DNA of 18,303 nucleotides from Escherichia coli (lineage in GTDB: Bacteria; Pseudomonadota; Gammaproteobacteria; Enterobacterales; Enterobacteriaceae), in the NCBI RefSeq assembly GCF_003334815.1, contig NZ_QOWO01000054.1, one strand, 5' to 3'. The notes under the pieces are model-generated. The model saw nothing but the letters and a program-made list of their open reading frames with translations, was not told where the DNA came from and did not search any database. Below, piece by piece: positions 16,531 to 18,303 of this stretch; position 1 is the stretch's first letter, and each line of letters opens with the position of its first letter. The position numbers and the translations under genes were made by a program.

Positions 16531-16589
16531 CCGTTCCTGACTCCGATACAGTGGTCTGGTGCTTTAGTATTACTGAACAGCAAAAAAAT

Positions 16590-16614
16590 GCCTCCCTCAG
16601 AGATGAAGGGAGGC
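16590..16614 (-). terminator. Intrinsic terminator-like hairpin oriented for minus-strand transcription
   Basis: gcctccct-cagagatga-agggaggc, an 8-bp GC-rich stem with a 9-nt loop. A run of seven A precedes it on the plus strand, which is a U-run after the hairpin on the minus strand. No U-run follows on the plus strand. Confidence 0.4.
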
Positions 16615-16719
16615 GGAAGAATAAGGCTTGTCTGATGAAACAACTCCCATGCCCGTTGGAAGTCGGATTACGGTTATTTTTTAACATATTTAGCAGGCGG
16701 AATTAAAGAGGAGAGAGGA

Positions 16720-16932
16720 ATGAATGGATTCAGAAACAGTTCACGGAACGGTCAGGTCTGGCGTTACCAGCGTGCCGGCGGGCGGGCCGTTATTCTGGAG
16801 GTCAGTGGACGCTGGATGGAAGCGGCAGAAGCATGGCGACGGGCTGCCTGCATAGCTCCCCGGACAGACTGGCAGCAGTTTGCCCGGAAAAGGGCTGAAC
16901 ACTGCCACCGGCGCTGCCGGGGAAGGGTGTAA
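16720..16932 (+). CDS. Small basic W/R-rich protein, possibly an ANR-family-like regulator; identity uncertain
   Basis: 70 aa with a strong RBS (AGAGGAGAGAGG) before the ATG at 16720. Helix-like motif GRWMEAAEAWRRAA...DWQQFARKRAEHC. GC-rich relative to its AT-rich surroundings. Confidence 0.45.
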   Translation: MNGFRNSSRNGQVWRYQRAGGRAVILEVSGRWMEAAEAWRRAACIAPRTDWQQFARKRAEHCHRRCRGRV

Positions 16933-16941
16933 CGAAAAAAG

Positions 16942-16973
16942 CAGCCTTCATTACACCAGAAGTCAGAAGGCTG
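16942..16973 (-). terminator. Second terminator-like hairpin oriented for minus-strand transcription
   Basis: cagccttc-(16-nt loop)-gaaggctg with AAAAAA immediately upstream on the plus strand, which is a U-run after the hairpin on the minus strand. Sits right at the stop codon of the 70-aa ORF. Confidence 0.35.
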
Positions 16974-17076
16974 AAAGGAGTTTATGAGATTTGCTTTTTT
17001 TAATATCCGGTCGGGCAGTATGACCGGACAGTTCTGAGTAGCACAGAGTTTTTTCCGTATTAAGTCGTGATTTTAT

Positions 17077-17100
17077 ATTTTGTGATTTATTTCACAAAAT
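17077..17100. promoter_or_regulatory. Perfect CRP-type palindrome (TGTGA-N6-TCACA) upstream of the nuclease gene
   Basis: ATTTTGTGA-TTTATT-TCACAAAAT; both half-sites match the CRP consensus and the flanks are AT-rich and symmetric. Centred about 90 bp upstream of the nuc start codon. Confidence 0.4.
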
Positions 17101-17177
17101 AAGGTGTTATTCATTGTGTGCTGCAATGTTCAGGATGCCTGAAATACAGGTGCCATTTATCTGATATGGAGAATAAC

Positions 17178-17639
17178 ATGATGAAATATATTCCGCTGGT
17201 ATTATTTATCTTTTCATGGCCGGTATTGTCTGCAGATATTCATGGACGGGTTGTTCGTGTACTGGACGGTGATACCATCGAGGTAATGGACTCACGGAAG
17301 GCGGTGCGGATCAGGCTGGTAAATATTGATGCACCGGAAAAGAAACAGGATTATGGCCGGTGGTCAACAGACATGATGAAATCACTGGTCGCAGGAAAAA
17401 CGGTTACCGTCACATATTTTCAGCGAGATCGTTATGGTCGTATTCTCGGGCAGGTTTATGCACCAGACGGAATGAATATTAATCAGTTTATGGTTCGGGC
17501 CGGGGCTGCCTGGGTATATGAGCAGTACAACACAGATCCCGTGCTGCCTGTCCTTCAGAACGAAGCCAGACAACAAAAACGTGGGCTCTGGTCAGATGCT
17601 GATCCGGTTCCACCCTGGATATGGAGACACCGTAAATAA
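17178..17639 (+). CDS. nuc: Secreted thermonuclease (staphylococcal nuclease, SNase-fold family)
   Basis: 153 aa from the ATG at 17178 with RBS GGAGA. Signal peptide MMKYIPLVLFIFSWPVLSA; SNase motifs RLVNIDAPE, DRYGRILGQVY and GLW. The track ORF start at 17118 is an upstream extension. Confidence 0.85.
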   Translation: MMKYIPLVLFIFSWPVLSADIHGRVVRVLDGDTIEVMDSRKAVRIRLVNIDAPEKKQDYGRWSTDMMKSLVAGKTVTVTYFQRDRYGRILGQVYAPDGMNINQFMVRAGAAWVYEQYNTDPVLPVLQNEARQQKRGLWSDADPVPPWIWRHRK

Positions 17640-17684
17640 AGCGATGGCAATCTTATCATTCATCTGTTCTCAGCAGGAATAAAA

Positions 17685-17893
17685 ATGGCAAAAACAAAAC
17701 AGGAATGGCTGTATCAGTTACGGCGATGTTCATCAGTCAATACGCTGGAAAAATTATTCATAAAAACAGAGACAGTTTATCGAACAGTGAACGTGAATCA
17801 TTTAATTCAGCAGCAGACCACCGGTTAGCGGAGTTAATCACCGGAAAGTTATATGACAGGATACCAAAAGAGATATGGAAATATATAAGGTAA
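17685..17893 (+). pseudogene. hha: hha/ymoA/rmoA-family H-NS co-regulator gene, interrupted by a -1 frameshift in an A5 homopolymer
   Basis: Frame from the ATG at 17685 gives MAKTKQEWLYQLRRCSSVNTLEKLFIK (Hha N-terminus ...[20 protein letters not shown]). The -1 frame continues [42 protein letters not shown] (Hha ...[30 protein letters not shown]). The switch is at AAAAA 17762..17766; one extra A would restore a 69-aa ORF. Confidence 0.75.
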
Positions 17894-17930
17894 TAATTCA
17901 GCATAATTAATTGCCAGGAGCAGATAAATA

Positions 17931-18303
17931 ATGAAGTTGATTATTTTTATTCTCATTGTTCTGATTATTGCAGCGTTACTTATCCGGATTATCCTCAGAA
18001 GTGTAAATCAGCATTCTCCTTTGCTGATGCAATTGCATGCGGCAGGTATACGGACCGGTGATGCAGAGCGAATACTGTCCAGCGGTGAATACTGGCAACG
18101 TCAGAAGACGCTGCTGACAGAAAGGGAAGTCAGTTTTATGAAAGGACTGTTCAGAATTGTGGATATGAAGCGGTGGTATCTGTGTCCGCAGGTACGGGTC
18201 GCGGATATCGTCCAGCTGAACGGGAATATCCGGCCACGATCACGCCAGTGGTGGCAGTTATTCAGGATGGTGTCTCAGTGGCATGTTGATGTGGTTATCG
18301 TTG
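17931..18303 (+). CDS. Second DUF2726-like membrane-anchored protein, paralog of 15236..15802; 3' end outside the window
   Basis: ATG at 17931 with AGGAG upstream; open to the window end, so absent from the ORF track. N-terminal helix MKLIIFILIVLIIAALLIRIIL, then the same core as the first paralog: LCPQVRVADIV...WWQLFRMVSQWHVDVVI. Confidence 0.7.
   Translation, partial: MKLIIFILIVLIIAALLIRIILRSVNQHSPLLMQLHAAGIRTGDAERILSSGEYWQRQKTLLTEREVSFMKGLFRIVDMKRWYLCPQVRVADIVQLNGNIRPRSRQWWQLFRMVSQWHVDVVIV

Follow-up and report, generated by a model that had tools for sequence, protein, structure and literature searches.

In this Escherichia coli contig, the 1.77 kb that follow traX belong to the conserved backbone of IncFII-type (MOBF12 group A) plasmids, where they form a tra-distal segment. 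Very probably this segment was joined by a homologous crossover to a group C transfer region, and the absence of finO is a trait of the lineage, not a lesion that derepresses transfer. This is ordinary, already-known biology. The window, meaning all of the DNA analyzed here (18,303 bp), is one entire draft contig (GCA_003334815.1), so both of its ends are assembly breaks: the 3′ end falls inside the second of two DUF2726 genes and the other end inside a transposon.

Gene content and composition of the traX-distal block

The original prediction, made from the letters alone, placed a small W/R-rich ORF, nuc, a broken hha and a DUF2726 paralog after traX, and all of these were recovered there. 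The W/R-rich ORF (16720–16932, plus strand) encodes 70 amino acids, including 4 W and 15 R, and falls in the ANR family with a marginal score (NF033650, 33.5 bits, cutoff 32). The nuc gene (17178–17639, plus strand, 153 aa) encodes a protein of the thermonuclease (SNase) family, as identified by NCBIfam nuclease matches and by PF00565 on an identical product, and is 98% identical in amino acid sequence to its R100 homologue. The second DUF2726 gene (17931–18303, plus strand, PF10881) is cut by the contig end; it has 99.9% nucleotide identity to CP099216.1, where the protein is 228 aa, and 56% amino acid identity to the DUF2726 gene at 15236–15802.

Between nuc and the second DUF2726 gene lies an rmoA/hha-family pseudogene (17685–17893, plus strand) with a −1 frameshift in place of an intact Hha-family ORF of ~69 aa. 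An A6 run has lost 1 nt and now reads A5 (17749–17753), which splits the gene into two ORFs, one matching the N-terminal and the other the C-terminal half of Hha; with the frame restored, 67 of 69 residues match R100 RmoA. Although the site is a homopolymer, sequencing error is an unlikely source, as five assemblies share the frameshift.

The absence of a FinO-like ORF from every frame was also confirmed: tblastn with FinO on the window returned spurious matches only (E ≥ 0.25), all outside this region. The GC content of the block is 45.7%, versus 57.7% for the tra part, and is uneven within it (ANR ORF 62%, hha 37%, ANR-nuc spacer 38%). No integrase or transposase gene was found within the block, and no insertion scar was seen at its junction with traX.

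Lineage of the transfer genes

On sequence similarity, the tra genes are placed in MOBF12 group C, an IncFV-like lineage whose prototype is pUMNF18_IncFV. Nucleotide identity of traD and traI (7693–15218, plus strand) to group C plasmids is 96–99%, and over traD-traI-traX the identity to plasmids of the pUMNF18_IncFV type is 96–97%. The DUF2726 gene between traI and traX (15236–15802, plus strand, PF10881) is group C-specific, being present in pUMNF18_IncFV and absent from R100, and traX (15799–16530, plus strand, TIGR02755, 356 bits) is of group C type, its product being identical to pUMNF18_IncFV TraX at 238 of 243 amino acids. Amino acid identity to R100 is 38% for TraX, 45% for TraI and 49% for TraD.

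Group C and IncFV-like plasmids are common in porcine and human ETEC, and 201 PLSDB records carry the group C locus type. In plasmids of the pUMNF18_IncFV type the order is traI-DUF2726-traX-ANR-like, with finO absent, and Salmonella and Citrobacter members of the group likewise have no finO after traX. The window resembles group C (pUMNF18_IncFV; F0lac and pED208, the latter a derepressed derivative of IncFV F0lac) in that the stretch from traD through traI, the first DUF2726 gene and traX to the following spacer is 96–99% identical, finO does not follow traX, and an ANR-like ORF comes directly after it. It differs in what lies beyond: the ANR-like ORF of native group C plasmids in E. coli is 94 aa long and has repA2 as its direct neighbor, except in pUMNF18_IncFV and pVP445, where a 331-aa hypothetical protein comes next, whereas in the window all DNA from the ANR start codon on is group A.

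Upstream of these genes, positions 1–7510 (minus strand) hold the end of a Tn21-family transposon (tniB, tniA, EAL/urf2, merE-D-A-C-P-T and merR), 100% identical to many mer transposons and assigned with Pfam families, which finishes in a terminal 38-bp inverted repeat (7473–7510). It sits in the 3′ end of traT, upstream of traD-traI-traX: the last 41 nt of traT occupy 7511–7551 (plus strand), and the match to CP099216.1 begins within traT, at 7510. The relatives have no transposon at this site, and searches of PLSDB and of complete E. coli genomes did not recover the mer/traT junction of the contig. The transposon is context and not part of the block.

The block as IncF backbone

The original prediction took the block for accessory DNA in the position of finO. 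In R100, as in thousands of IncF plasmids, it is instead what normally lies downstream of finO. The order in R100 is traX-orf286-finO-ANR-nuc-hha-DUF2726-repA2, and in pNT1F10-102k and pEC_B24 it is traX-finO-ANR-nuc-hha-DUF2726-repA2; the expectation that finO follows traX in R100 overlooks orf286, an alpha/beta-hydrolase gene that intervenes between the two. Aligned with group A plasmids from the finO stop codon on, the window has 96.2% nucleotide identity to pNT1F10-102k and 92.3% to R100, and it keeps the ANR-nuc-hha-DUF2726 order toward repA2 that characterizes the IncFII segment after finO. The block is present in at least 4,325 PLSDB records, and the run downstream of it to hok/sok, repA2 and repA1 was observed in relatives.

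From ANR on, the window and the R100/R1-type IncFII segment share genes, order and orientation, and both have the antisense RNA AS-pc02. The comparison of GC content and synteny with related plasmids that had been proposed showed that the GC dip is real, but the R100 counterpart has a matching one (47.1%) together with the same gene order, which does not fit accessory DNA. The window differs from that segment in having neither finO nor orf286 upstream, in its frameshifted rmoA/hha, in a DUF2726 gene that, in the closest complete relative, encodes the longer variant of 228 aa, and in upstream tra genes that come from another lineage. The suggestion of an acquired region stands insofar as the block from ANR on differs in origin from the tra genes, and falls insofar as the block is syntenic backbone.

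A crossover at the ANR start codon

The spacer between traX and ANR (16531–16718) is of group C type; alignment shows distant homology to its counterpart between finO and ANR in group A plasmids. A terminator scan detected a terminator-like hairpin in it, on the minus strand (16590–16614). Informative sites in 16560–16718 are of group C type, except one that matches neither lineage, and all 73 from 16738 on are of group A type. Over 150 informative sites the switch is clean, the last group C site being 16718 and the first group A site 16738, and the 19 nt at 16719–16737, at the ANR start codon, are identical in both lineages. Within these 19 nt group A DNA has recombined onto a group C tra region by a homologous crossover; each lineage carries an ANR gene immediately 3′ of its last tra-associated gene.

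The traX-ANR junction is identical in at least six independent assemblies, and it is found in three complete plasmid records. The hybrid is rare: apart from pJNE25-005_2, it was seen in 2 of the 201 PLSDB records of group C type.

FinO, FinP and TraJ in related plasmids

The traJ region falls outside the window, and FinP and TraJ were sought in relatives. No FinO, a protein with the ProQ/FinO domain (PF04352), was found by tblastn and annotation in the complete CP099216.1 and pJNE25-005_2, the two closest complete relatives, or in the L016 scaffold; the FinO query scored 361 bits against NF010317 and recovered finO in pNT1F10. The predicted absence of finO thus holds for the window and for both complete relatives. 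Rfam searches of the traM-traA regions of CP099216.1 and pJNE25-005_2 gave no FinP or traJ 5′ UTR (RF00107, RF00243) at E ≤ 1, whereas the R100 positive control gave FinP at 93 bits and the traJ 5′ UTR at 110 bits. R100 TraJ had no tblastn match at E ≤ 0.01 in CP099216.1, pJNE25-005_2 or L016, and no TraY or orf286 homologues were found in the relatives by tblastn.

The regulators in the traM-traA region differ between the relatives: CP099216.1 encodes a 93-aa protein annotated as "TraJ," and pJNE25-005_2 a Cox-family protein and an HTH protein. Some group C plasmids encode a distant ProQ/FinO-domain protein ~6.5 kb past traX.

Group C plasmids have been described as having no FinO, as carrying the non-homologous TraJV in place of canonical TraJ, and as not derepressed (PMC5102898). 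The original prediction had reasoned from a missing finO to possible derepression. This does not follow here, because the relatives that were checked have neither FinP nor TraJ. The refuting condition named in that prediction, that the gene order is standard for the lineage, holds as regards the missing finO: group C plasmids from E. coli, Salmonella and Citrobacter have none after traX. The isolate's own plasmid probably lacks the FinOP components elsewhere as well and, going by the published statement on IncFV plasmids, would not be derepressed. In group C, finO is never placed after traX, hence its absence here. The group C relatives examined offer FinO no target, having neither FinP RNA nor a canonical TraJ, and transfer in this lineage is therefore probably under other regulators.

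Alternative explanations

If finO had been lost or displaced from an F- or R100-like plasmid, FinP/FinO repression of traJ would fail and the plasmid would be derepressed, as in F finO::IS3. No FinO-like ORF exists in the window or the complete relatives, and F is a precedent for derepression of a group A plasmid by finO loss (PMC5102898). The window is like F in that functional FinO is absent. However, F retains FinP and TraJ, and FinO loss therefore derepresses it; the relatives that were checked have neither, and in the lineage of the window the absence is ancestral, not mutational. That a group A plasmid lost its finO by deletion is rejected on the divergence of the tra genes from F/R100 type and on the group C-type SNPs up to 16718: since the traX-proximal spacer is of group C type throughout, no scar of a deletion in a group A ancestor is present. 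Together with the Tn21-family transposon end that sits in traT of the isolate, and with the report that group C is not derepressed, this leaves loss of finO very improbable. An assembly artefact, in which a short-read chimera of two co-resident IncF plasmids produced the traX-ANR junction without finO, might be suspected since the window is a whole draft contig whose 3′ break lies inside a gene that has a paralogue. The same junction occurs, however, in closed plasmids from two countries, the UK and Japan, as well as in a metagenome scaffold, and at least four further assemblies span it with 100% identity (L021, L023 and L024 among them), so that the chance of a chimera is practically negligible.

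The low GC content of the block, lowest in hha and the ANR-nuc spacer, its origin distinct from that of the tra genes, and its Hha-family and ANR-family products, both families including known H-NS partners (PMC5570504, PMC10148876, PMC4864382), would also suit an AT-rich accessory island that had entered after traX by horizontal transfer and was silenced by H-NS. Such an island is very improbable too, though slightly less so than loss of finO. The same order stands beside repA2 in R100 and all the other plasmids counted above, R100 has the same GC dip, and the ANR ORF itself is GC-rich; a genomic island would have a restricted distribution and mobility signatures at its boundaries, whereas this block is widespread and its junction is a homologous crossover, by which one backbone variant was swapped for another.

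The ANR gene and AS-pc02

The ANR ORF is identical to one in pNT1F10-102k, annotated there as WP_001299730.1, and pHK01_099 probably corresponds to it, judging from position. It is intact in the 15 loci scanned and in R100. Its dN/dS of 0.24–0.48 indicates purifying selection, yet its divergence is unusually fast; against NF033650 the 94-aa ORF native to group C reaches 23.9 bits, under the cutoff. A Pfam search with the 70-aa ORF gave no match, and a PDB sequence search returned designed helical proteins only, with no relative of solved structure.

AS-pc02 (Rfam RF02876, 181.9 bits, gathering score 40) is encoded on the minus strand at 16829–17014 and partly overlaps ANR, at the gene's 3′ end, with a promoter-like site at 17097–17070 (minus strand). 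It also occurs in R100, in pNT1F10 and, weakly, in pUMNF18. Group A and group C alike have an ANR gene with this cis-antisense RNA directly downstream of the last tra-associated gene, which is finO in the former and traX in the latter.

The ANR proteins Aar and Rnr bind and antagonize an AraC/XylS activator and/or H-NS (PMC5570504, PMC10148876). In two papers on the ANR family, neither IncF plasmids nor conjugation are mentioned. There is a slim chance, slightly below that of an accessory island, that the ANR gene and AS-pc02 form an unrecognized regulator of transfer or of H-NS silencing, which with RmoA/Hha might give FinO-independent fertility control in group C.

Implications

The consequence of the finding is little beyond correct annotation: ANR-nuc-rmoA-DUF2726 belongs to the IncF backbone and is not cargo. 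Where finO is missing after traX, the tra region should be assigned to a lineage before derepression is inferred, as group C and IncFV-like plasmids lack FinOP by design. The window is a small, concrete case of IncF mosaicism, in which the ANR gene is the hinge on which group A and group C backbones are exchanged by homologous recombination.

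Gene content downstream of traX

The contents originally listed for 16531-18303 were confirmed. After the end of traX at 16530 (TIGR02755, 356 bits) come a 70-aa ORF containing 4 Trp and 15 Arg (16720-16932), which matched the NCBIfam model for the AraC negative regulator (ANR) family (ANR_neg_reg, 33.5 bits against a 32-bit cutoff) and had no match in Pfam; nuc (17178-17639), encoding a 153-aa thermonuclease (PF00565 on an identical product); hha (17685-17893), broken into two overlapping ORFs, one matching the N-terminal half of Hha and the other the C-terminal half; and, from 17931 past the window end, a second DUF2726 gene, whose product is 56% identical to that of the first copy (15236-15802). 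A FinO query, which scored 361 bits against NF010317 when checked beforehand, gave no real tblastn hit in the window. Rfam also identified a minus-strand antisense RNA, AS-pc02, whose span includes the 3′ end of ANR (16829-17014; RF02876, 181.9 bits). On the same strand, a sigma-70-like promoter lies upstream of AS-pc02 (17097-17070), and a strong terminator-like hairpin lies ~215 nt past its annotated 3′ end, just after traX (16614-16590).

The block is a usual neighbor of finO

The block had been proposed to occupy the place of finO, but in R100 (traI-traX-alpha/beta hydrolase (orf286)-finO-ANR-thermonuclease-hha-DUF2726-repA2-tap-repA1) and in pNT1F10-102k and pEC_B24 (both traX-finO-ANR-nuc-hha-DUF2726-repA2) the same block directly follows finO; it is the usual neighbor of that gene and no substitute for it. 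pNT1F10-102k aligned to the window at 96.2% over 1,728 nt, starting at the finO stop codon and reaching the window end, and R100 aligned at 92.3% over 1,734 nt. Positions 16927-18303 were matched by 4,325 PLSDB records, 2,129 of them at ≥80% of the length. Rfam detected AS-pc02 in R100 and in pNT1F10 as well; the hit in pUMNF18_IncFV was weak.

The AT-rich composition is real (45.7% GC against 57.7% in the tra part) and uneven, with 62% GC in the ANR ORF, 37% in hha and 38% in the ANR-nuc spacer. The corresponding R100 segment has 47.1% GC, so the dip is a property of this backbone everywhere, which speaks against it as a mark of an acquired region. H-NS binding at the AT-rich parts is plausible from their composition. 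Nucleases of different folds occupy the traX-repA2 slot in several lineages, SNase family in the window (17178-17639) and R100 and phospholipase-D family in group C plasmids of Salmonella (L019, 6747-7025) and Citrobacter (L020, 6812-7375).

The tra genes and the block belong to different lineages

Protein identity to R100 was 38% for TraX, 45% for TraI, 49% for TraD and 98% for Nuc. DNA of the tra part was 96-99% identical to finO-less plasmids ordered traI-DUF2726-traX-(94-aa ANR-like ORF), including pUMNF18_IncFV, which Fernandez-Lopez et al. (2016; PMC5102898) take as the prototype of MOBF12 group C. Judged by these identities, the tra genes are of another lineage than those of R100. The DUF2726-traX locus type was present in 201 PLSDB records at ≥80% length, from Escherichia, Salmonella, Citrobacter and others; plasmids of Salmonella Weltevreden and Citrobacter freundii lack finO and carry traX, then a phospholipase-D-family gene, then repA2.

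The window was aligned with pVP445 (group C) and pNT1F10 (group A, R100/R1-type). Informative sites from 16560 to 16718 were of group C type, except one matching neither type, and those from 16738 to 16990 were all of group A type (73/73), which places the crossover inside 19 nt common to both lineages (16719-16737), at the ANR start codon. The group C spacer before the ANR gene has distant homology to the group A finO-ANR spacer, including a minus-strand terminator-like hairpin (16590-16614), so that ANR is the first gene past the tra cluster in both lineages. The ANR gene provided the homology by which one version of the traX-to-repA2 segment was exchanged for another. Among complete records the hybrid is rare (CP099216.1, CP099212.1 and pJNE25-005_2), but its junction is real: positions 7512-18303 were 100% identical to contigs of at least five other samples, and 98.7% identical to a metagenome scaffold (L016).

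ANR and hha genes

The ANR ORF was intact in the 15 loci scanned and in R100, with a length of 70 aa in group A and hybrid plasmids and of 94 aa in native group C, where it diverges past codon ~66. Pairwise dN/dS was 0.24-0.48 (dS 0.4-1.0), and divergence was far above that of its neighbors (aa identity to R100 is 73%, compared with 98% in Nuc). This gene (window 16720-16932; L010 36214-36426; L009 6419-6703) is a divergence hot spot in an otherwise conserved block. None of the papers searched describes what the ANR-like protein does in IncF plasmids; ANR proteins of other systems bind AraC-type activators and H-NS (PMC5570504, PMC10148876). The adjoining ANR gene, antisense RNA and Hha-family gene would make up a speculative H-NS-related module.

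The hha split comes from the loss of 1 nt from an A6 run, so that A5 remains at 17749-17753. With the A put back, 67 of 69 residues match RmoA, identifying an orthologue of R100 rmoA (PMC3256949). Besides the window, CP099216.1 and three further assemblies have the frameshift, and A6 is kept in pJNE25-005_2 and scaffold L016, nearest relatives of the same hybrid structure.

Transposon end and contig breaks

The mer/tni side of a Tn21-family transposon end (1-7510; 64% GC, 38-bp IR at 7473-7510) adjoins the last 41 nt of traT (up to 7551). Sibling contig L021, whose TraI is identical, has traN-traT intact, so the insertion or truncation is peculiar to this isolate. It may have polar effects on traD, traI and traX, and the arrangement makes the transfer proficiency of this copy doubtful whatever the regulation. 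The window makes up the whole of draft contig QOWO01000054.1 (GCA_003334815.1), and its two ends are assembly breaks, one within the transposon and one within the second DUF2726 gene; breaks in several sibling assemblies likewise fall in or near the latter, suggesting either a repeat or the presence of a co-resident replicon with the same sequence.

Absence of finO and regulation of transfer

The closest complete relatives are CP099216.1, a pig-farm K88/F4 plasmid with 96.7% identity across 10.8 kb, and pJNE25-005_2 (98.5% identical). Neither contained FinO by tblastn or annotation, and beyond the window end CP099216.1 and L016 continue without finO, through DUF2726 (228 aa), a 102-aa ORF, hok/sok, repA2 and repA1. 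The traM-traA region of both relatives gave no Rfam match to FinP or the traJ 5′UTR at E ≤ 1, in a search that recovered both from R100 as positive control (FinP, 93.4 bits; traJ_5, 110 bits). When R100 TraM, TraJ, TraY and orf286 were searched, only TraM had a homologue there (36-38% identity). FinO would therefore be without a known target in this lineage. The traM-traA module differs between the two plasmids, whose tra regions are closely related: CP099216.1 (11416-12078) encodes a 93-aa protein annotated 'TraJ' and a 55-aa ORF, and pJNE25-005_2 (8773-9481) a Cox-family protein and a divergent cI-like HTH protein.

Some group C plasmids (L015, 17295-17897, minus strand; L017; L018) encode a 200-aa ProQ/FinO-domain protein (PF04352) ~6.5 kb downstream of traX, so group C is not uniformly free of FinO-domain proteins. 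It scored only 25 bits against the FinO model, its gene lies ~2 kb from a colicin Ia gene in L015 and L018, and none of CP099216.1, pJNE25-005_2 and L016 encodes it.

Group C is described as having no recognizable FinO homologue and a 'TraJV' unrelated to TraJ, yet as not derepressed (PMC5102898); pED208 derives from IncFV F0lac and is derepressed (PMC10666033). The original prediction was right that finO is absent, but its interpretation of a plasmid possibly derepressed for transfer is largely without support. Lack of finO is standard in the backbone of the lineage, and it does not imply derepression, because the FinOP system to which FinO belongs is itself missing from the lineage. The feature is accounted for by known plasmid biology.
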